Shown here in pieces: positions 2,686-11,637 of a stretch of 11,637 nt of DNA. Below the pieces are notes generated by a model that saw nothing but the letters and a program-made list of their open reading frames with translations, ran no database searches and was not told the DNA's origin. How positions within the stretch are numbered: position 1 is the stretch's first letter; each line of letters opens with the position of its first letter. A program made the translations under genes and the position numbers. The stretch lies in the IMG/VR virus record IMGVR_UViG_2534681675_000022; one strand, given 5' to 3'. The DNA comes from a virus (lineage: Duplodnaviria; Heunggongvirae; Uroviricota; Caudoviricetes).

Positions 2686-2913
2686 TCATCCTGGCGGTCG
2701 GTTTTTGCCGGATTTAAGCCGCCGTGGGTATTTATCGACAAAATCTTCAAGGGCAAATTTTTCTGGTGGCACTAAGCGCGGCGCTGGTGGTGGTATTTTT
2801 GTTCTGGTTAGTTCTTCCTCAAGTCTGGCGCAGGCTTCTGACTGCCTTTGCCGGATGATTTCATCATCTTGCGTTTGCGTGTCTTGTATTGGTGATAGTG
2901 TGTTGTTGGTCAT
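2686..2913 (-). CDS. Hypothetical small protein (75 aa), paralog 2 of a duplicated pair
   Basis: ORF begins MTNN, contains FALEDFVDKYPRR (compare FVLDEFLKKYSRS in the 2025-2228 ORF), and has the same leader immediately 5'. Confidence 0.45.
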   Translation of the reverse strand: MTNNTLSPIQDTQTQDDEIIRQRQSEACARLEEELTRTKIPPPAPRLVPPEKFALEDFVDKYPRRLKSGKNRPPG

Positions 2914-2922
2914 GTTACTGCC

Positions 2923-2966
2923 CTGTAAAGCAATGCGCCGTAGTACCTCACACCACGGCGCTGATA
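2923..2966. repeat. Conserved ~45-bp leader element, copy 2 (between RHH gene stop and ORF 2686-2913)
   Basis: Near-identical to 2234-2279. The three differences all fall in the loop of the GCGCCG/CGGCGC hairpin, so the stem is preserved. Confidence 0.6.
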
Positions 2967-2970
2967 GTGA

Positions 2971-3150
2971 TTATTCTGATTCTTTGGCCTTGCGGCGCTG
3001 GCGGCGTTTGATCTCGCCTTCAAGTGCCGAAACGATAAATTGCCCTGTACTTTCGCCATCTTCCTTTAAATTTTCTACAGCATCAGCTATTGCGTGTGGT
3101 ACTCGAGCCTCAAGCTTTTTGGATTTTGCATTAACTGCTTTTGTTGCCAT
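2971..3150 (-). CDS. Ribbon-helix-helix (Arc/MetJ/CopG-like) DNA-binding protein, 59 aa; candidate island repressor
   Basis: Internal ATG at 3148-3150 with a GAGGAAA Shine-Dalgarno; the ORF track's longer 106-aa version has a poor N-terminus. MATKAVNAKSKKLEARVPHAIADAVENLKEDGESTGQFIVSALEGEI fits the RHH strand/helix/G-x-S/helix pattern (compare Arc ...NLRWPREVLDLVRKVAEENGRSVNSEIYQRV). Divergent from the rightward operon. Confidence 0.5.
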   Translation of the reverse strand: MATKAVNAKSKKLEARVPHAIADAVENLKEDGESTGQFIVSALEGEIKRRQRRKAKESE

Positions 3151-4192: not shown

Positions 4193-4492
4193 ATGAAACT
4201 TAAATATTCTGGCTTAACTGCCAGTGGCAACACTCACCCTAAATTTACGCGCGGTGATATTTACCGCGACCAGTACGGCGGCACGGTAATGATTAAGGGC
4301 GTGGCGGGACGGTGCGTAACTTACCGCCATGAAGGTTACGAATATGATTGCGTGATGCCTGTTTATCAGTTCCGGCGTGATTTTTCTCTGGTACAGACCG
4401 CGCCGCATAACGTGCCCACCAGCAACGCCAGGGCACGGGCAAACATCCAGAAGCTGAAAACCATGATTAACGGATTCAGGGGTAAAAAATGA
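4193..4492 (+). CDS. Hypothetical protein (99 aa), overlaps start of replication gene
   Basis: ATG 4193 with GGAGA upstream; its stop overlaps the ATG of the primase ORF (ATGA coupling). Confidence 0.55.
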   Translation: MKLKYSGLTASGNTHPKFTRGDIYRDQYGGTVMIKGVAGRCVTYRHEGYEYDCVMPVYQFRRDFSLVQTAPHNVPTSNARARANIQKLKTMINGFRGKK

Positions 4493-6237
4493 AACTGGCA
4501 CCGAACGTAAAAAAACAGCCACGCGGAATAAAACACAAAGACACAGAGGTAATTATCTTTGCGGGTAGTGATGCCTGGTCGCACGCGAAACAATGGCAGG
4601 AGCAGGATGGCCCCGCATCCGGCGATAATGTGCCGCCTGTGTGGCTTGGGCCAAAGCAGCTTGCCGAACTTGATGCGCTGAAAATTGTTCCGGATGGGAA
4701 AAAGCGCGTAAGGCTGTACCAGGCCGGAGAACTGGATTTAGTGGAGACCAAAAAGATTGGTCAGAAGCTGGCGGCGGCAGATATTCAGGACGCAAATTTT
4801 TACCACGAAGGAATGCACGTCCAGAAGTGTGAAAACTGGCGGCGCTATCTGAATGCTGAGCGTGAAAATATTGCCGCAGGGCTTACCATGCCGGAGCAGA
4901 AAAATACGCAACTGGCACAAATGGCAGACAGTGAGCGCGCACAGATGCTTGCTGGTCGATTTGATGGCGTTTGTGTGCATCCGGAAAGTGAAATCGTTCA
5001 CGTATGGCGCGGCGGGGTATGGTGTCCGGTCAGCACAATGGAACTTAGCCGCGAAATGGTGGCGATCTATTCAGAGCACAGGGCCACTTTCAGCAAACGC
5101 GTGATCAATAACGCCGTTGAAGCGTTAAAAGTTATTGCCGAACCAATGGGGGAGCCGTCCGGCGATTTGTTGCCGTTCGCCAATGGTGCGCTTGACCTGA
5201 AAACGGGGGAATTTTCCCCGTACACGCCGGAGAACTGGATCACCACGCACAACGGCATTGAGTACACGCCACCAGCACCTGGGGAGAACATCCGCGATAA
5301 CGCGCCAAACTTTCATAAATGGCTTGAGCACGCAGCCGGAAAAGACCCGCGCAAGATGATGCGTATATGTGCCGCGCTGTACATGATTATGGCGAACCGG
5401 TACGACTGGCAGATGTTTATTGAGGCCACCGGAGACGGCGGGAGCGGTAAAAGTACATTCACACACATAGCCAGCCTTCTGGCAGGGAAACAGAACACGG
5501 TAAGCGCTGAAATGACATCGCTTGATGATGCTGGTGGACGTGCGCAGGTTGTCGGGAGTCGTCTTATCGTCCTGGCAGACCAGCCGAAATATACAGGCGA
5601 AGGAACGGGCATCAAGAAAATCACGGGCGGCGACCCCGTGGAAATAAACCCGAAATATGAAAAGCGTTTCACGGCGGTAATCAGGGCGGTGGTGCTGGCG
5701 ACCAATAATAACCCGATGATATTCACCGAACGGGCCGGAGGTGTGGCACGTCGTCGCGTGATTTTCCGTTTCGACAATATTGTTAGTGAGGCCGAAAAAG
5801 ACAGGGAACTACCGGAAAAAATTGCGGCTGAAATCCCCGTTATTATCCGCCGCTTGCTGGCGAACTTTACCGACCCTGAAAAGGCGAGGGCTTTACTACT
5901 GGAACAGCGTGACGGTGATGAAGCACTGGCAATAAAGCAACAGACGGATCCGGTTATTGAGTTTTGCCAGTTCCTGAATTTTCTGGAGGAAGCGCGCGGC
6001 CTGATGATGGGTGGCGGTGGTGATTCAGTGAAGTACACGACCAGGAACAGCCTTTACCGCGTCTATCTGGCGTTTATGGCATACGCAGGCAGGAGCAAAC
6101 CGCTAAACGTGGCTGAGTTCAGCAAGGCCATGAAGCCAGCGGCGAAAGTTTACGGGCATGAATATATTACGCGAAAAGTTAAGGGAGTAACGCAGACCAA
6201 CGCAATTACAACAGACGATTGCGACGCGTTTTTATAA
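4489..6237 (+). CDS. Replication initiator: phage/plasmid primase-associated D5_N-type domain plus P-loop (SF3-helicase-like) NTPase
   Basis: 582-aa ORF. Walker A GDGGSGKST and a Walker B-like hydrophobic stretch RLIVLADQ; central region typical of the P4-family primase C-terminal/D5_N architecture; located directly upstream of an iteron array. Confidence 0.85.
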   Translation: MKLAPNVKKQPRGIKHKDTEVIIFAGSDAWSHAKQWQEQDGPASGDNVPPVWLGPKQLAELDALKIVPDGKKRVRLYQAGELDLVETKKIGQKLAAADIQDANFYHEGMHVQKCENWRRYLNAERENIAAGLTMPEQKNTQLAQMADSERAQMLAGRFDGVCVHPESEIVHVWRGGVWCPVSTMELSREMVAIYSEHRATFSKRVINNAVEALKVIAEPMGEPSGDLLPFANGALDLKTGEFSPYTPENWITTHNGIEYTPPAPGENIRDNAPNFHKWLEHAAGKDPRKMMRICAALYMIMANRYDWQMFIEATGDGGSGKSTFTHIASLLAGKQNTVSAEMTSLDDAGGRAQVVGSRLIVLADQPKYTGEGTGIKKITGGDPVEINPKYEKRFTAVIRAVVLATNNNPMIFTERAGGVARRRVIFRFDNIVSEAEKDRELPEKIAAEIPVIIRRLLANFTDPEKARALLLEQRDGDEALAIKQQTDPVIEFCQFLNFLEEARGLMMGGGGDSVKYTTRNSLYRVYLAFMAYAGRSKPLNVAEFSKAMKPAAKVYGHEYITRKVKGVTQTNAITTDDCDAFL

Positions 6238-6250
6238 TTTTTTGTAAAAG

Positions 6251-6477
6251 CCCTCTACCCCATCTACCTGAATGAAATAAACGCATATTATTCAACATGA
6301 TAAGTGGGTAGAGGGCCAGGTAGAAGGCTAATAAAAGCTCTCTACCTCTTCTACCTGATTTTATCAGTTTCAGATGGCAGGGTAGACGGCAGGTAGAGGA
6401 GCACCAAAAGCTATCTACCCGCTGAAAGCCGCGCCATTACTGACATGATGAGCATTCGGGTAGATGGGTAGAGGGGG
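6251..6477. repeat. Iteron array (candidate replication origin)
   Basis: About 11 copies of GGTAGA[GATC]GG in both orientations, arranged in pairs (CCCTCTACCCCATCTACC; GGGTAGAGGGCCAGGTAGAAGG; CTCTCTACCTCTTCTACC; GGGTAGACGGCAGGTAGAGG; CTATCTACCC; GGGTAGATGGGTAGAGGG) with AT-rich spacers, immediately 3' of the replication gene. Confidence 0.7.
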
Positions 6478-6520: not shown

Positions 6521-6835
6521 ATGCGCATACATCAAAATCACTTAACAAACATGCCAGCCGAAAACATGAATCAGGGGCGACAAATGACCAAAATTCGCAG
6601 AGACAGAACAGAGCCAAAATATAAAGCGTTAGACATGACTGAGCACACCTTAAAGGTGGCAATCAGAACGATAGACCGCCACACGCGGGAAGGATACGCG
6701 AAGGAACATCCCGAACTGATAAGCGCATTCATGACCACAGCGGCGGCAAACTTTGCCACGCTGACAGAACGGGAGATTGCCGAAGCGGAACAGGTAACAA
6801 CCATCAACGTTAAAACCGGAGAGGTGGAATCATGA
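6521..6835 (+). CDS. Hypothetical protein (104 aa)
   Basis: ATG 6521 preceded by GAGGGGGTG; its stop overlaps the SSB start. Confidence 0.5.
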   Translation: MRIHQNHLTNMPAENMNQGRQMTKIRRDRTEPKYKALDMTEHTLKVAIRTIDRHTREGYAKEHPELISAFMTTAAANFATLTEREIAEAEQVTTINVKTGEVES

Positions 6836-7242
6836 CAGCACAGATAGCCGCTTACGGGCGGCTGGTGGACGACCCGCAGGTAAAACAGACCAGCAAGGGC
6901 ACACCGATGACGCTGGCGCGTATGGCGGTCCCCCTTCCGTGCAGCCAGGCAGATGACGGAACGGCTACGTTATGGCTATCGGTGATGGCATTTGGTAAGC
7001 AGGCCGACTTCCTGGCTAAACATCAAAAAGGCGACGTTGCCAGCATATCTGGCGTGATGCAGATAAGCCAGTGGACCGGACTGAACGGGGAAACGCGGCA
7101 GGGTTATCAGGTTATTGCAGACAGCGTAATCAGTGCCCGTGCGGCACGTCCTGGCGGGAACAGACGCAAAACCACAGGCGCACAGGGTAATCAGCCACCA
7201 GCGGGAGACGATGACCCCTACGGTGATGATATTCCGTTCTGA
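6832..7242 (+). CDS. ssb: Single-stranded DNA-binding protein (OB fold) with acidic C-terminal tail
   Basis: 136-aa ORF. N-terminal GRLVDDPQVKQTSKG and the W...FGK...KG...G spacing fit the SSB OB fold; Gly/Gln/Pro-rich linker; C-terminal DDDPYGDDIPF is the canonical SSB tail motif. Confidence 0.75.
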   Translation: MTAQIAAYGRLVDDPQVKQTSKGTPMTLARMAVPLPCSQADDGTATLWLSVMAFGKQADFLAKHQKGDVASISGVMQISQWTGLNGETRQGYQVIADSVISARAARPGGNRRKTTGAQGNQPPAGDDDPYGDDIPF

Positions 7243-7250
7243 ACGCACAG

Positions 7251-7273
7251 GCCGGAGAAAATCCGGCTTTTTG
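7251..7273 (+). terminator. Intrinsic terminator after ssb
   Basis: GCCGGA gaaaa TCCGGC followed by TTTTT. Nearly identical to the terminator at 9517-9542. Confidence 0.7.
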
Positions 7274-7276
7274 TAC

Positions 7277-7325
7277 CCAAAAAAAGCCCGATAAGTACAG
7301 GAGGAAGCTTATCGGGCTTTTGCTT
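7277..7325. terminator. Second hairpin with flanking A/T runs; candidate bidirectional terminator
   Basis: AAGCCCGATAAG (7284-7295) / CTTATCGGGCTT (7308-7319) 12-bp stem, 12-nt loop, preceded by AAAAAAA and followed by TTTGCTT. Confidence 0.5.
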
Positions 7326-7394
7326 ACGAGGTTAACAGCATGGTGACTACTGTTGCTGTAAATCATTTCATAATTTGCAACGCAACTCAATTTT

Positions 7395-7444
7395 ATTGCG
7401 CAAAATGCAATCATGATTATAATCATAACTGGATGAACATCCAG
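7395..7444 (+). promoter_or_regulatory. Candidate late-operon promoter with embedded palindromic operators
   Basis: Perfect TATAAT (7418-7423) with a weak -35 (TTGCGC, 17-bp spacer). The -10 sits inside a perfect 14-bp palindrome ATGATTATAATCAT (7413-7426), followed by a perfect 16-bp palindrome CTGGATGAACATCCAG (7429-7444). Confidence 0.4.
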
Positions 7445-7479
7445 TTGTGATTTTTTAAGTCAAAGAGGAATTTCTGACT

Positions 7480-7686
7480 ATGGCAGAAGAGAAAAAAGGC
7501 GGTGTTTCGGTGTACATAAGCCCCGAAATCGTGGAGGTGCTCAAGCAGCGCCACAAAAAAAACTATGAGGCTGGCGTAGCGGCTGGACTGGATCCGCTGA
7601 TGACGCCGGAGCCGTCGATAGGTTCACTTGTGCGCTCTTATTTACTTGCGGCGCTTGGGATGCATAAAAATTATGGGGGTGAATAA
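7480..7686 (+). CDS. Hypothetical protein (68 aa), first gene of capsid operon
   Basis: ATG 7480 with AGAGGA upstream; its stop overlaps the ATG of the major capsid gene. Confidence 0.55.
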   Translation: MAEEKKGGVSVYISPEIVEVLKQRHKKNYEAGVAAGLDPLMTPEPSIGSLVRSYLLAALGMHKNYGGE

Positions 7687-8741
7687 TGGCAGGCAAAGCA
7701 ACGGCACTTAACACTAACCAGCTTTTTGCGTACCTGAATCGCGGGGATATTGCGGAATTTAAATTCAGTCCGCTGTTTACCACGCTGTTTTTCCCGAACG
7801 TGGCGACATTCAGCACCCAAAACATCATGCTGGATACCCTGGACATTGAAGAAGTCACCATGTCGGCGTTTTGTTCGCCTATGGTTGGCAGCCAGGTACA
7901 GCGCGATAAAGGATACGAAACCAGCACGATTAAACCTGGCTACATGAAGCCAAAGCACGAAATCGATCCAACAAAAACCATCATGCGCATGGCTGGAGAA
8001 GATCCGGCACAGCTTAACGACCCTACCTACCGACGTATGCGCCTGATTACTGGCAACATGCGCCGCCAGGTAAACGCCATTAAAGCGCGCGTGGAATGGC
8101 TGGCGGTGAATGCGATAACGACCGGAAAAAACATTATTGAGGGCGAAGGCATAGAACGCTATGAAATAGACTGGAAAATACCGGAAAACTGCATCATAGA
8201 GCAGGCCAAGGGTAAAAAATGGTCCGAGCAGGATAAAGAGATGCACGACCCAATCTATGACATCGAGCTTTATGCAGATCAGGCTGGTTGCCCCGCAAAC
8301 GTCATGATTATGGGCGCTGAGGTATGGCGCACGTTACGCAGCTTTAAAAAATTCCGTGAGCTGTACGATCTTTCCCGTGGTTCAGAATCCGCCGCAGAAC
8401 TGGCCTGTAAAAACCTGGGCGAAGTGGTGAGCTTTAAAGGCTATCTGGGCGATATTGCCCTTATCGTCTATTCCGGCAAATACGCTGACAGCGACGGCAC
8501 CGAAAAATATTTCCTTGAGCCTGATTTACTGGTCCTGGGTAACACCAACAATAAAGGCCTGGTGGCCTATGGTGCGATTATGGATCAGGAAGCGGTCAGA
8601 ACGGGCGCAACGCAAAACATGTACTACCCGAAAAACTGGATTGAGGACGGCGATCCGGCGATTGAGTACGTGCAGACACACAGCGCACCGCAGCCGGTAC
8701 CGGCAGATATTCGCAAATTTGTTACCGTCAAAATTGGTTAA
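7686..8741 (+). CDS. Major capsid protein, phage lambda gpE family
   Basis: 351-aa ORF colinear over its whole length with lambda gpE (341 aa) as I recall it: EFKFSPLF vs KFKFDPLF; PGYMKPKHEI vs PGYVKPKHEV; EDPAQLNDPTYRRMR vs EDPQNLADPAYRRRR; SRGSESAAELACKNLGEVVSFKGYLGDIALIVYSGKY vs RRGSNSELETAVKDLGKAVSYKGMYGDVAIVVYSGQY; YPKNWIEDGDPAIEY vs YPKNWVTTGDPAREF. Confidence 0.9.
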   Translation: MAGKATALNTNQLFAYLNRGDIAEFKFSPLFTTLFFPNVATFSTQNIMLDTLDIEEVTMSAFCSPMVGSQVQRDKGYETSTIKPGYMKPKHEIDPTKTIMRMAGEDPAQLNDPTYRRMRLITGNMRRQVNAIKARVEWLAVNAITTGKNIIEGEGIERYEIDWKIPENCIIEQAKGKKWSEQDKEMHDPIYDIELYADQAGCPANVMIMGAEVWRTLRSFKKFRELYDLSRGSESAAELACKNLGEVVSFKGYLGDIALIVYSGKYADSDGTEKYFLEPDLLVLGNTNNKGLVAYGAIMDQEAVRTGATQNMYYPKNWIEDGDPAIEYVQTHSAPQPVPADIRKFVTVKIG

Positions 8742-8752
8742 CGGGGGATTCT

Positions 8753-9088
8753 ATGGACACTCCATACATTGAGTTATTCGCAGGCAGTCAGCAGGTCGCC
8801 ACGACGCTGGTACATTTTGCCGCTGATGCTGGCGTTATTCAGGAATTTACCCCGCTGATGCTGGCGGACAATGGCGAGTTTAAGCCGTGGGATGGTCAGG
8901 AATCTGGCAAGGCTGTTTATCTGACTTCGTACCCCGTGGACACGTCGACGCAGAAATCAGCACAGTGTTACAAGACGGGGATATTTAATATCGCTGCCGT
9001 AAACTGGCCTGAGAGCGCCGACACTGACGCGAAAAAATGCGCTGCCTTTGCGGGGGCTGGCGTATCCGTTCAGCCGCTGGCCCGATAA
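8753..9088 (+). CDS. Head decoration protein, phage lambda gpD family
   Basis: 111-aa ORF. TPLMLADNGEFKPWDG, YKTGIF and WPESADTDAKKCAAFAGAGVSV match lambda gpD ([46 protein letters not shown]). GGGGGA Shine-Dalgarno upstream. Confidence 0.85.
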   Translation: MDTPYIELFAGSQQVATTLVHFAADAGVIQEFTPLMLADNGEFKPWDGQESGKAVYLTSYPVDTSTQKSAQCYKTGIFNIAAVNWPESADTDAKKCAAFAGAGVSVQPLAR

Positions 9089-9097
9089 GCAGGGGGA

Positions 9098-9514
9098 ATG
9101 ATGGCAACGAATGAAAGCATCATGACGCTACCGCTGGCGAGTAAATTTAAAGCCGAAGCGCGGGCAATGGCTGACAGAGGGTTATCAACCTACGAGGGCA
9201 TATATCAACTTAACAAACTGGAAGAGCAGGACAAGCCGCGCGCTGATTCGATTATGGCGCTTGATGAATCTGGCGACTATCAGCCGCTGTTACGTGCAAT
9301 GGCAAACGTGCCTTGTATCGATGTTGGTACGGCTAAAAGCATCCTTAGCATGACCATAGAGCAGGAACGTCCGAAGGTTGCGCCGGAGCTTACCGCAGCC
9401 TTTGAAAACTTTATGGACACGCACAGCCCGCAAGCCGTATCAGCTGGCATGGCATACGATGGCAGAAACCCGGGCGATGACGGCGACATCGATCGCATAC
9501 TGAAAACCATCTGA
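9098..9514 (+). CDS. Hypothetical protein (138 aa) downstream of the capsid genes
   Basis: ATG 9098 or 9101 after AGGGGG; last gene before the terminator and cos. Sits where lambda has FI, but I could not support sequence similarity to FI. Confidence 0.55.
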   Translation: MMATNESIMTLPLASKFKAEARAMADRGLSTYEGIYQLNKLEEQDKPRADSIMALDESGDYQPLLRAMANVPCIDVGTAKSILSMTIEQERPKVAPELTAAFENFMDTHSPQAVSAGMAYDGRNPGDDGDIDRILKTI

Positions 9515-9516
9515 GA

Positions 9517-9542
9517 CAGGCCGGAGAAATCCGGCTTTTTTT
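9517..9542 (+). terminator. Intrinsic terminator after the capsid operon, abutting cos
   Basis: GCCGGA gaaa TCCGGC followed by eight T residues; near-duplicate of the 7251-7273 terminator. Confidence 0.75.
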
Positions 9543-9610
9543 ACGGGTCCTTTCCGGCATATGGACCCGTTACGGGGCGGCGACCTCGCGCGTTTTCGCT
9601 ATTTATGAGC
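9543..9610 (+). other. Lambda-type cos site A: cosQ-side flank, cosN (12-nt cohesive end GGGCGGCGACCT at 9575-9586) and first ~24 bp of the cosB side
   Basis: ACGGGTCCTTTCCGG...GTTACG GGGCGGCGACCT CGCGCGTTTTCGCTATTTATGA is almost base-for-base the lambda right-end/left-end junction as I recall it; similarity ends after TTTATGA. Confidence 0.75.
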
Positions 9611-9719
9611 CTTTTCAGGGGGGTGGTGGTGGTTTTGTTGTTTGCTCTATCTTTATGAATGAAAAGGGAAAGATGCAAACAATACACCAACCTGAAGCAG
9701 TAATTAAGTTGGTGTATTA

Positions 9720-10262
9720 ATGAAATCGCACCTGATGAACAAAAAAAACATGGCGAAAAGCTGCCGTGTAAGTGCGACAGCGTTCGACAAGTGGGGAGTG
9801 ACTCCCGTTGAACGTAAAGGCCGTGAGGCGTTTTATGATGTTGCCAGCGTGATAGACAATAGGGTTAACAATGCAATTAGCCAGCTTACAAACGACAAAG
9901 GCGATATTGATGATGATGAACTCTTACGAGTCAGGATCAGATTACTGACAGCACAGGCGGAGGCGCAGGAACTTAAAAACGAGCGCGATCGCGGTGACGT
10001 GATTGATACTGAGTTTTGCCTGTACGCGCTTTCAAAGCTGGCGAGTCAGATTTCATCAATCATGGACAGCCTCCCGCTTACTATGCAAAGGAGCTTCCCA
10101 CAGATTACCCCCGCCATGCTGGACAGGCTTAAAAGGGAAGTGGTTAAAGCCTGTAATGCCAGTGCCAGAGTTGCCGACAACCTCCCACAGATACTGGCTG
10201 ATTACTTGAAAGAAACAACCGGAAACGTACCGGAAAAGTTGCTACAGAAGAAAGGCAAGTAA
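9720..10262 (+). CDS. Terminase small subunit, lambda Nu1 family
   Basis: 180-aa ORF. C-terminal two-thirds align with lambda Nu1: LLTAQAEAQELKNERD vs LTRAQADAQELKNARD; FCLYALSKLASQISSIMDSLPLTMQRSFPQ vs FCTFVLSRIAGEIASILDGLPLSVQRRFPE; LKREVVKACN vs LKRDIIKAMN. N-terminal wHTH region is recognisable (NKK..., YDVASVI vs YDSAAVI) but divergent in the recognition-helix region. Start could be 9720, 9735 or 9750. Confidence 0.85.
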   Translation: MKSHLMNKKNMAKSCRVSATAFDKWGVTPVERKGREAFYDVASVIDNRVNNAISQLTNDKGDIDDDELLRVRIRLLTAQAEAQELKNERDRGDVIDTEFCLYALSKLASQISSIMDSLPLTMQRSFPQITPAMLDRLKREVVKACNASARVADNLPQILADYLKETTGNVPEKLLQKKGK

Positions 10263-10288
10263 CAGAAGCGCAATTATTGAACAAAAAT

Positions 10289-10490
10289 GAGAAAGGATCT
10301 GATAATGGCATTTTCTGGCTAAAATGCCTCGTGTCAGATCCTTTCTTTTTTTAATATTTTCATTGTTAAACAGTCTGTTACAGAGAAGAAGAACGGATCT
10401 GACTTTTGCCGGAAAATTTTCATAAACAGATAAAAACCGCGAGGTCGCCGCCCCGTAACGGGCCATAATTCCAGGAAGGACCCGACGACA
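10289..10490 (-). other. Lambda-type cos site B in inverted orientation: cosQ-side flank, cosN (10442-10453) and a full cosB-like region with three R-like repeats
   Basis: Minus strand reads CGGGTCCTTCCTGGAATTATGGCCCGTTACG GGGCGGCGACCT CGCGGTTTTTATCTGTTTATGAAAATTTTCCGG ...CCGTTCTTCTTC..., tracking lambda cos for more than 100 bp. Core GGATCTGA/TCAGATCC at 10294-10301, 10333-10340 and 10395-10402 sits where lambda has CGTTTCC/GGAAACG, in the same orientation pattern. The inner 13-bp inverted repeat (10289-10301 / 10333-10345) plus T-run also looks like a terminator for terS. Confidence 0.75.
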
Positions 10491-10517
10491 CCAGGCTATC
10501 AGAACGATGGGGGCACA

Positions 10518-10799
10518 ATGACAGAAGCCGAACTACTGCGATTAATCCGCCGCGTTACCGGAATCAGCCAGCAGCATGACGAACAGGGCACGCAACCGGA
10601 CAGCGTGACCGCTGAAAATTATGCGCGTGTTGTTGCTGAGGTGATGCGCCGTGATGGTATTGAGCTTAACGGCGTGGATATGCGCAACATACGAACCAGA
10701 GTCCTTGAGTTGCTGGCATACCGTCGCCGCGTGGAGATGTATCGGGAGAAGGAGAAAATCACGTACCACTGGAAGAAGCCGGAACGGTTGCGGCGGTAA
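10518..10799 (+). CDS. Hypothetical protein (93 aa) just outside cos B
   Basis: ATG 10518 after GATGGGGG; Arg-rich helical-looking protein; no recognisable family. Confidence 0.4.
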   Translation: MTEAELLRLIRRVTGISQQHDEQGTQPDSVTAENYARVVAEVMRRDGIELNGVDMRNIRTRVLELLAYRRRVEMYREKEKITYHWKKPERLRR

Positions 10800-10882
10800 C
10801 TCACTGAGATTAAAGCAAAGCTCAAAATTGCGCTGGCTGAATGATCATTATGATTACTTATGTTTACGCAGATGATTAAGGC
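10789..10882. repeat. Direct repeat, copy 1 (~90 bp), overlapping the 3' end of the 93-aa ORF
   Basis: GGCGGTAACT...TTAAAGCAAAGC[TG]CAAAATTGCGCTGGCTGAAT[GA]ATCATTATGATTAC...GCAGATGATTAAGG; copy 1 has an extra TTATGTT relative to copy 2. Confidence 0.6.
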
Positions 10883-10922
10883 CTAAACCGTTGATTATTC
10901 CACAATCCCCCATTGGGGGAAG

Positions 10923-11005
10923 CTGGCGGTAACTGGTTGAACTTAAAGCAAAGCGCAAAATTGCGCTGGCTGAATAATCATTATGATTACGCAGATGATT
11001 AAGGA
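10923..11005. repeat. Direct repeat, copy 2 (~83 bp)
   Basis: Same unit as 10789-10882. Contains the AGCGCAA aa TTGCGCT hairpin and the ATCATTATGAT palindrome. Confidence 0.6.
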
Positions 11006-11022
11006 ATGACCGAAGGCGGAAA

Positions 11023-11322
11023 TTCGCCTGTGGTTGATGGGGGAGTTGCAGATCTGCAACTCGACCATGAAATTACGGAAACTACCCGTAGTTTGGGTAG
11101 TAAGAGCAACACCCAGATTTTGGGGCTTACTCGTGATACCCAAATTTGGGGTATCGGCGGCAACCATAACGACTTTCGTTACGGTTGATGCTTTTACCCC
11201 ATTGAGGGAAAGGTATTACGATAATCATAACACCTACCGAACAGGTAAAGCCCACCAGCCTGATTAACTGTTAACCGGAAAAAAATTCCGGTAGGGTTCC
11301 CGATATGGGAATCCCCATATCG
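11023..11322. other. Palindrome-dense non-coding region near the right end of the island (candidate att arm / regulatory or structured RNA region)
   Basis: Consecutive perfect or near-perfect palindromes: AGGCGGAAATTCGCCT; GTTGCAGATCTGCAAC (16 bp); AAACTACCCGTAGTTT; GATACCCAAATTTGGGGTATC; TTAACTGTTAA; CCGGAAAAAAATTCCGG; CGATATGGGAATCCCCATATCG. No convincing ORF. Confidence 0.4.
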
Positions 11323-11484
11323 ACAGCAACGCCCCCTTAAAATTACCCGCCTTTATATTTCTTGTGCCTATTTGTTCCACGTTGTTTCATACAGTGCGCC
11401 GAACGGTGTAGTCACTGGTGTAGTTATTTTGAGTTTTTTTGCACTTCGGGCTTAATTGAAAATATAATTAAATCAGTATGTTAT

Positions 11485-11637
11485 TCAAAATAAGTTATAT
11501 ATAACAGCAATAAATAATGCGAGAATAAACGGCACGAGGATCTCGGCGGCAAAACGGATACCGCAGAGAATAATGACCAGCATTCCCAACATAATGACGA
11601 TTTTTAGACCATTGAGCGTGATGATCGGCTTTGCCAT
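11485..11637 (-). CDS. Short ORF (50 aa): N-terminal fragment resembling the AI-2 exporter TqsA/YdgG (AI-2E family) membrane protein, apparently truncated at the island junction
   Basis: Minus-strand translation from the ATG at 11637: [46 protein letters not shown], then YNLF and stop. This matches the TqsA N-terminus as I recall it for ~46 residues; the downstream sequence becomes AT-rich and unrelated. Confidence 0.5.

Follow-up and report, generated by a model that had tools for sequence, protein, structure and literature searches.

The right end of an 11,637-nucleotide stretch of viral DNA (IMG/VR record IMGVR_UViG_2534681675_000022, the whole of which we call the window) carries a non-coding region at 10789-11325, in which a sequence-only reading had noticed a direct repeat followed by a dense run of palindromes. 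Pfam and PHROG scans, together with a near-identical annotated genome (L001), identify the window as a phage satellite of the Escherichia coli phage-inducible chromosomal island (PICI) type inserted in tqsA. We find that the region is a conserved, mosaic, satellite-specific array in which sites matching the consensus of integration host factor (IHF) are paired with palindromes and accompanied by Chi, and that this array is located between the last gene of the late zone (open reading frame ORF93) and the true arm of the attachment site attP. The array is not a cluster of arm sites, an origin, a cos site, a gene or a known RNA. By analogy with the BIME-1/RIB type of bacterial interspersed mosaic element (BIME; RIB, reiterative IHF BIME), we tentatively propose that it acts at the DNA level as an architectural element and recombination joint beside attP, a role that we regard as possible rather than probable.

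The region matches DNA in 1522 of 5426 complete E. coli genomes, at 1-6 places in each, as a mosaic of blocks, and all contexts that we inspected are right ends of satellites, directly 3' of an ORF93 homologue. These satellites include lambda-E/D/Nu1-type islands in tqsA and other sites, a capsid-forming PICI beside phoQ, ClpP-capsid-fusion islands at tRNA-Ile, and helper-embedded islands within prophage late genes. A sister island with another replicase and another origin has a right end that is 99.4% identical across window positions 6584-11637. Judging from these alignments, the module is a mosaic that is independent of integrase, att site, replicase and packaging type, and such independence argues against arm sites, an origin or cis replication region (crr), and cos. 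The sequence-only reading had looked to conservation in related islands as a check, and the repeats and palindromes do recur as a mosaic non-coding module at the right ends of many satellites. No DNA match to the region was found in phages, and a scan of genome contigs gave a single Shigella locus only. Matches among plasmids are confined to six records, with no oriT-like relatives, and these records are probably mis-filed chromosomes or excised satellites. The 'plasmid' record NZ_CP148328.1 (10,790 bp; H134) carries the block at 11031-11160 that we call module B, and it may be an excised circular satellite that was assembled as a plasmid.

The array structure became apparent when 54 distinct downstream regions were split at a GGTAACT box that recurs in them. 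In its basic unit, which is co-oriented from copy to copy, the IHF consensus YAANNNNTTGATW (reading WATCAANNNNTTR on the opposite strand) is separated by about 10 T/C-rich nt from a short palindrome, and a Chi-like, G-rich tail of the form RAG-N-Y-GGCG(C)GG completes the unit. Palindromes occupy a fixed place in the unit but vary in sequence. A perfect hairpin of at least 5 bp starts 17-26 nt after YAA in 45 of 60 distinct motif contexts, compared with 6% when the tails are shuffled, and the hairpins at this fixed offset use 10 different stems. One stem occurs in the compensatory variants AGCGCAA..TTGCGCT, AGCTCAA..TTGAGCT and AACGCAA..TTGCGTT. Strict matches to the IHF consensus reach a density of 2.05 per kb in the terminal regions, compared with 0.01 per kb across the 123 kb of island DNA upstream of them. 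One orientation accounts for 52 of the 69 strict matches; the remaining ones are probably the oppositely oriented core-proximal site near the att core, an assignment made for the group rather than match by match. The number of units per island varies from 1 to 5 or more, and at one locus (L092) three tandem units of 54 bp each carry a different palindrome. Palindrome density lies 4-8 sd above shuffled sequences in most relatives. In a metagenomic relative with 46% ORF93 identity (L087), all five strict IHF motifs point the same way and at least four have a hairpin about 20 nt downstream; the unit architecture is kept there though the non-coding DNA no longer aligns.

In the window the units are partly degenerate, with two repeat-borne units showing 2-3 IHF mismatches. 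The left part of the array contains the following features:

10792-10881, plus strand: copy 1 of the direct repeat, a composite cassette
10797-10809: degenerate IHF-like motif TAACTCACTGAGA, in copy 1
10819-10834: quasi-palindrome AGCTCAAAATTGCGCT, in copy 1
10884-10896: strict IHF consensus, TAAACCGTTGATT on the plus strand, reading AATCAACGGTTTA on the minus strand
10906-10920: palindrome TCCCCCATTGGGGGA, 9 nt after the strict IHF match and followed by the Chi-like tail AAGCTGGCGG
10925-11004, plus strand: copy 2 of the direct repeat
10930-10942: TAACTGGTTGAAC, in copy 2
10952-10967: palindrome AGCGCAAAATTGCGCT, in copy 2
10975-10989: palindrome TAATCATTATGATTA, in copy 2
10995-11001: extra half-site ATGATTA, in copy 2

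The direct repeat pair noticed earlier is thus genuine. Its period is 133 bp from start to start, and its copies are 89% identical over the first 66 nt and 96% identical over a 24-nt tail beyond a 10-bp indel (TTATGTTTAC), an internal duplication that is restricted to copy 1. Copy 1 begins within the last codons and the stop of ORF93, and it also holds a cluster of ATCAT/ATGAT half-sites. The 133-bp repeat is a tandem duplication of a composite cassette made of one unit and the ATCAT/ATGAT half-site block. The best-formed unit of the window occupies 10884-10920, and two units composed of TTGAT plus a palindrome are found at ~11033 and ~11185. IHF sites had been anticipated in the region, and by consensus they are there, as the strict match at 10884-10896 and as many matches in sister islands.

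To the right of the repeats the palindromes crowd together, with these features:

11031-11160, no strand assigned: module B, the most conserved non-coding block
11043-11062: palindrome GAGTTGCAGATCTGCAACTC, perfect over 20 bp, in module B
11079-11094: palindrome AAACTACCCGTAGTTT, in module B
11135-11155: GATACCCAAATTTGGGGTATC, or GATACCC-N7-GGGTATC, with 7-bp arms, in module B
11161-11187: near-invariant extended inverted repeat CAACC-AT-AACGA-CTT-TCGTT-AC-GGTTG
11196-11208: quasi-palindrome ACCCCATTGAGGG, which with TTGATGCTTTT before it makes a degenerate unit
11252-11259, minus strand: Chi site (GCTGGTGG on that strand), within the most invariant block of the right part, GTAAARCCCACCAGCCTGATTAA
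11274-11292: inverted repeat ACCGGAAAAAAATTCCGGT
11301-11322: inverted repeat CGATATGGGAATCCCCATATCG

Counted at a stem of at least 6 bp and a loop of at most 8, perfect inverted repeats number 9 in 10800-11340 versus 0.9 +/- 0.9 in shuffles (z = 8.7), and same-length coding stretches of the window contain 0-2. Single-strand folding of 11005-11330 gives z = -7.6 on the plus strand and z = -9.0 on the minus strand. The dense run of perfect palindromes reported by the sequence-only reading is therefore real and GAGTTGCAGATCTGCAACTC is a perfect 20-mer as described there; its second example, GATACCCAAATTTGGGGTATC, has 7-bp arms and is not a perfect 21-mer. Module B is 89-100% identical across 22 loci, including 92-94% identity in islands whose ORF93 DNA reaches only 82-84%, and in other islands it stands directly after ORF93. 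A diverged copy of the 20-bp palindrome has its innermost pair altered on both sides, from GCAGATCTGC to GCAAATTTGC. The central triplet of the repeat at 11161-11187 is variable among relatives (CTT, ACA, TCA or TTT), and the position of the quasi-palindrome at 11196-11208 is taken in some of them by an unrelated palindrome, TCGTCCGGCATTCGGACGA. The Chi site within GTAAARCCCACCAGCCTGATTAA is kept in 14 of 16 distinct variants. The inverted repeats at 11274-11322, which lie 93-118 bp ahead of the arm motif, are common and not universal, an arm having been lost in several relatives. Formal pair counting on the alignment of module C was abandoned, as its stems hardly vary and gap placement mis-registers the second hairpin.

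The hairpins themselves indicate at which level the symmetry operates. Among 88 distinct perfect hairpins across loci, the residual loop is 2 nt or shorter in 58%, compared with 18% under the null, and the centre is AT-rich in 64%. Single mismatches comprise 8 G.T and 6 A.C, without strand bias. Rfam searched at permissive thresholds gave nothing relevant in the window or in three other loci (L002, L005, L087), the best match within the region being manA at 18 bits (E = 0.42). Palindromes mostly perfect to the centre, the two-sided change in the diverged 20-bp palindrome, mismatches without strand bias, an empty Rfam search and the lack of plus-strand signals described next together favour dyad symmetry at the DNA level over RNA. 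DNA-level dyads could arise from a mutation process that symmetrises sequence, or could serve symmetric binding or the formation of hairpins or cruciforms. The region has no plus-strand promoter-like match and no plus-strand terminator; the only plus-strand promoter-like match is at 10277-10306, upstream of ORF93, and such matches do not exceed shuffle expectation. A weak terminator-like hairpin is present on the minus strand at 10967-10952. The path from ORF93 over the joint to int contains no plus-strand terminator either, and transcription of ORF93 therefore probably extends into the region.

The position of the array relative to the attachment site was fixed by comparison with island-free E. 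coli genomes, in which the match to the window starts only at 11501, in tqsA. The sites concerned are:

11406-11426, plus strand: doubled arm-type motif GTGTAGTCActgGTGTAGTTA (GGTGTAGTYA twice), ~89 bp left of the core
11471-11483, plus strand: core-proximal IHF-like site AATCAGTATGTTA, with one mismatch here and perfect in sister islands
11501-11509: att core ATAACAGCA, the identity block common to attR (window), attL (L001 2418-2426) and attB (K-12 tqsA, L086)
L001 2555-2577: second copy of the doubled arm motif on the attL side, ~144 bp right of the core

The att core at 11501-11509 is the right boundary of the island, and because island-free genomes match only from 11501, the region at 10789-11325 is island DNA. 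This disposes of the earlier concern that it might be host DNA, and in the excised circle the region does adjoin attP on the side opposite int. The IHF-like site at 11471-11483 lies ~18 bp ahead of the core, and in 29 of 40 distinct arm contexts such a site follows the arm motif at a fixed 43-44 bp; it is this site, not the strict match at 10884-10896, that corresponds to the intasome-type IHF site. Sister islands with other integrases have different doubled motifs in the same place (TGTATTGC, TGTGGTCAG and ATGTTAAC-type). For related PICI integrases, a doubled motif has been reported at ~81 bp on the upstream side and ~132 bp on the downstream side of the attP centre (PMC10111431). Distances to the crossover are 500-700 bp for the direct repeats and 180-470 bp for the main palindrome run, and these elements do not cluster within the ~250 bp that we took as the span of an arm cluster. 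They are absent from the attL side, and they occur with three different arm motifs. Arm sites of the kind expected by the sequence-only reading therefore do exist beside the core, at 11406-11426, and lie to the right of the repeats and palindromes, not within them. The repeats and palindromes themselves are not integrase arm sites, given their distance of 180-700 bp from the crossover and their recurrence with different integrases and att sites.

In the architectural and recombinational role that we tentatively assign to the array, IHF would bend the DNA at each unit, with a footprint overlapping the neighbouring palindrome, and the units together would act as a compact nucleoprotein or topological buffer where the late operon reaches its 3' end, which in the excised circle is immediately upstream of attP-int. 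The Chi at 11252-11259 on the minus strand would be oriented to stop RecBCD arriving from the cos side, and repeated unit boundaries plus Chi would provide a recombination joint at which satellites swap modules and accessory genes. Such a joint is in keeping with how extremely mosaic the region is and with accessory genes being inserted at the array. The array is the left edge of an accessory-gene slot: in a helper-embedded island (L093 1775-2536), an abortive-infection (Abi) gene stands between the array and the att arm, and in two loci (L027, L041) open reading frames occupy the place of the array. Elsewhere, at L004 (7333 onward), the island is inserted within a prophage terminase gene. Chi is abundant beyond the array as well, with nine sites in the window (873, 2029, 2783, 5530 and 6861 on the plus strand; 4416, 5269, 7195 and 11252 on the minus strand) versus ~2.5 expected at the E. 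coli average (Poisson P ~0.001) and 0.3 from shuffles. This excess may be an adaptation of a satellite that has no Gam-like RecBCD inhibitor. Unit tails are Chi-like, as in GCTGGCGG of the window and GTAGCTGGTG of L087.

Several observations weigh against this proposal. Only one strict IHF match falls in the region of the window under study, and allowing up to one mismatch reveals no enrichment in the window as a whole (10 sites versus 12.5 expected); we infer IHF binding from the consensus alone. At 6-7 bp, most palindrome arms are short for the formation of stable cruciforms, and several hairpins are lost or broken in some relatives. The unpaired stretches of module B are conserved too, which an architectural role alone does not explain. 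Finally, the Chi of the module is on the plus strand in L004, L005 and L087 and on the minus strand in the window, and since its orientation differs between island types, a single RecBCD model does not fit all islands.

A bolder possibility, which we consider somewhat unlikely, is that the array is an undescribed, dedicated cis-acting module of E. coli PICIs, with phased IHF sites, interchangeable palindromes and Chi, that is required for their life cycle. If so, the module could organise attP and int specifically in the circle for re-integration, could protect or recombine the cos-cut or rolling-circle DNA of a satellite that lacks a Gam-like RecBCD inhibitor, or could drive the shuffling behind the dynamic late zone. 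The published PICI literature that we searched does not describe the terminal array; it already describes the doubled arm motif, the two-cos arrangement and the zone model.

Other explanations assign the symmetry to particular binding proteins. Were the array an extended attP arm, its repeats and palindromes would bind the arm domains of Int, the excisionase (AlpA/Xis) and IHF as part of the intasome, in keeping with its place next to attP, its IHF-consensus sites and the palindrome CGATATGGGRATCCCCATATCG, which is always ~190-215 bp from the core with several att types. We judge this improbable, as 11406-11509 already accommodates the doubled arm motif, an IHF site and the core, with the second arm copy on the attL side, an arrangement equal to the published one (PMC10111431). 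The modules, moreover, are accompanied by arm motifs unrelated to one another (GTGTAGTYA, TGTATTGC, ATGTTAAC) and by different att sites, unit number runs from 1 to 5 or more, the direct repeats stand far from the crossover, and the palindrome at 93-118 bp from the arm has its left arm deleted in several islands. The sequence-only reading had also suggested a cluster of operators. Operators or decoys for sequence-specific dimeric regulators of the island, the helper phage or the host (Fur-box-like ATCAT/ATGAT, for example) would be consistent with dyads that are true DNA palindromes, with TAATCATTATGATTA and its third half-site, with NATWAT-like hexamers in the repeats, and with the conserved sequence of module B. 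The palindromes keep their position and not their sequence, however, and because those at homologous positions are unrelated, no single regulator fits; nor does any regulator gene co-vary with the module, as islands with different regulatory and replication modules share it. We therefore hold this suggestion to be unsupported and highly improbable. None of the known operator consensus sequences compared (PurR, NarL/NarP, Fis, LexA, ArgR) matched well, and comparison with integron attC, CRISPR repeats, Ter sites, nut sites and P1 pac/parS gave no fit. In satellite P4, crr consists of two 120-bp repeats between the end of the alpha operon and attP, and the topology of the window resembles it. 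A crr-like region with direct repeats of ~120-130 bp beside attP, bound by the satellite replicase, nevertheless deserves next to no credence: 6245-6475 is the only cluster of GGTAGA/TCTACC iterons and 10789-11500 contains none, and the sister island with a different replicase and origin and a near-identical right end already contradicts it.

Two further explanations were weighed. According to one, the array is a set of recombination scars in an empty accessory-gene hotspot, left over from exchanges at the 3' end of ORF93, with palindromes perfected by template switching and with no sequence-specific function beyond homology for module swapping. The extreme mosaic with 1-5 units per island, the resemblance of unit tails to the ORF93 3' end, the Abi gene at this spot in L093, the open reading frames replacing the array in L027 and L041, and palindromes perfect to the centre, as expected from quasi-palindrome correction, all speak for it. 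We think it unlikely. The IHF motif, its orientation and its spacing to the palindrome are kept in the relative with 46% ORF93 identity and unalignable non-coding DNA, module B is more conserved than the adjacent gene, and neutral debris should not retain an architecture in which ten stems occupy one fixed offset. According to the other, the element works as RNA, either as a structured 3' untranslated region of the ORF93/late-operon transcript (a stabilising or processing array similar to repetitive extragenic palindromic, or REP, sequences) or as one or more non-coding RNAs, possibly controlling read-through over attP into int in the circle. Very strong folding z-scores on both strands are in its favour, as are stems kept while loops vary (AACGA-NNN-TCGTT and GATACCC-loop-GGGTATC), a first hairpin starting ~20 nt past the stop codon, and the lack of a predicted plus-strand terminator from ORF93 to int across the joint. 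Set against these are the lack of any Rfam family in four diverse loci, the absence of both a plus-strand promoter-like match and a terminator within the region, G.U-type mismatches without strand asymmetry, and a conserved linear motif that fits a DNA-binding consensus. Complementarity also continues through the would-be loops in more than half of the hairpins, which RNA folding could not select. A structured RNA, the other alternative offered by the sequence-only reading, is accordingly without support, and we rate an RNA-level element as distinctly unlikely.

ORF93, the constant left neighbour of the terminal non-coding module, is the last gene of the late zone:

10518-10799, plus strand: ORF93, 93 aa, phrog_1561, with its stop codon TAA at 10797-10799

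It has no Pfam family, and its PHROG annotation is without function. A single-sequence AlphaFold model has three helices at a pLDDT (predicted local distance difference test) of 67, too weak for a fold search, and the family is narrow, with 37 clusters at 50% identity. Its C-terminus WKKPERLRR and stop codon (window 10770-10799; P0150 and relatives) are invariant, even in the homologue at 46% identity. The first array unit overlaps this WKKPERLRR end, and the TAA of the unit is the stop codon of ORF93. Since the end is invariant at 46% overall identity, this overlap suggests that the first unit shapes the 3' end of ORF93 through a constraint at the DNA level. In the distant relative L087, five copies of AAAAAGTGTCAA(G/C) are found at 2760-3000, immediately before the ORF93 homologue; possibly a terminase (as at cosB) or a regulator binds them. 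Within the array, a 52-aa open reading frame at 11030-11188, annotated in RefSeq genomes as a hypothetical protein by the Prokaryotic Genome Annotation Pipeline (PGAP), is probably not a gene, as in sister islands it lacks a start codon and is interrupted by an in-frame TGA. Four frames are open in module B, and its few substitutions are preferentially synonymous in no frame. We thus agree with the earlier statement that no convincing coding feature explains the region.

The rest of the window provides the satellite context, including genes for a single-stranded DNA-binding protein (SSB), a lambda E-like capsid protein, a D-like decoration protein and a Nu1-like small terminase (TerS), all assigned by Pfam/PHROG:

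1-1218: P4-type integrase
4489-6237: D5-type primase-helicase
6245-6475: replication origin with iterons GGTAGA/TCTACC, directly 3' of the primase-helicase gene
~9538-9620, plus strand: lambdoid cosQ/cosN, upstream of terS
~10340-10485, minus strand: second cos, inverted, with phage-like cosB

At the origin, 11 or more iteron copies of either orientation surround an AT-rich stretch, and in sister island L001 the replicase and origin are exchanged as a single block. Just 3' of int, at 1369-1450, a weak Rfam match to BSnc120 (27 bits, E = 0.008) comprises a hairpin and a U-tract; it scores far below the gathering score and is most likely simply the int terminator. The two lambdoid cos sites are of inverted orientation and bracket the Nu1-like terS gene. 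Upstream, only cosQ/cosN is common with phages and cosB is divergent, while the downstream inverted cos matches phage further into cosB. PICIs with two cos sites are already known, for example EcCICFT073. As an identity for the region itself, a cos site was rejected, the cos sites being at ~9538-9620 and ~10340-10485.

In E. coli, PICIs are major vehicles for the transfer of genes and for defence against phages, and their right end houses accessory and defence genes. If the array is functional, it would be a family-wide cis element that is absent from current PICI models (int-alpA, Bro, replication and late zones), and it could explain the organisation of attP, survival of RecBCD or module exchange. 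If it is only recombination debris, it still records the joint at which late-zone and integration modules are reassorted. In practical terms, ORF93 followed by the array and the doubled arm motif is a landmark for the right boundary of such satellites.

We compared the array with several known systems. The published attP of PICIs and helper-embedded PICIs (HE-PICIs; PMC10111431) and that of lambda, with arm, IHF and core sites, have the same layout as 11406-11509 of the window plus the attL side; relative to these, the repeats and palindromes of the array are further out and independent of integrase type, and attP lies to the right of them. With P4 crr the window shares a direct repeat pair of ~120-130 bp between the last gene of an operon and a satellite attP, and it differs in that its repeats are without origin iterons and independent of the replicase. 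The lambda sib retroregulator and Pcirc of ICEclc are, like the array, located across attP from int and linked to int only in the circle, whereas the array region contains no RNase III-type long hairpin, plus-strand terminator or promoter-like match; the resemblance is positional only. BIME-1, RIB and the related RIP (repetitive IHF-binding palindromic) elements offer the closest likeness in construction: short palindromes alternate with IHF-consensus sites in extragenic DNA at the 3' end of a transcription unit, copy number varies between strains at one locus, and no protein is encoded. Functions in DNA architecture, in insulation and in mRNA stability have been attributed to BIMEs (PMC3333891). 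In contrast to BIMEs and REP sequences, the array has no REP consensus (GTAG plus a GC-rich imperfect palindrome of 30-40 nt) and no linked RAYT (REP-associated tyrosine transposase). Its palindromes are 13-25 bp long, mostly perfect and AT-centred, with at least 10 sequences that differ from unit to unit, and its units are direct instead of alternating. In the contexts inspected, it occurs only at satellite ends rather than as hundreds of chromosomal copies. Extragenic arrays of IHF sites plus palindromes are thus known, and a satellite-borne version built from different sequences would appear to be new.

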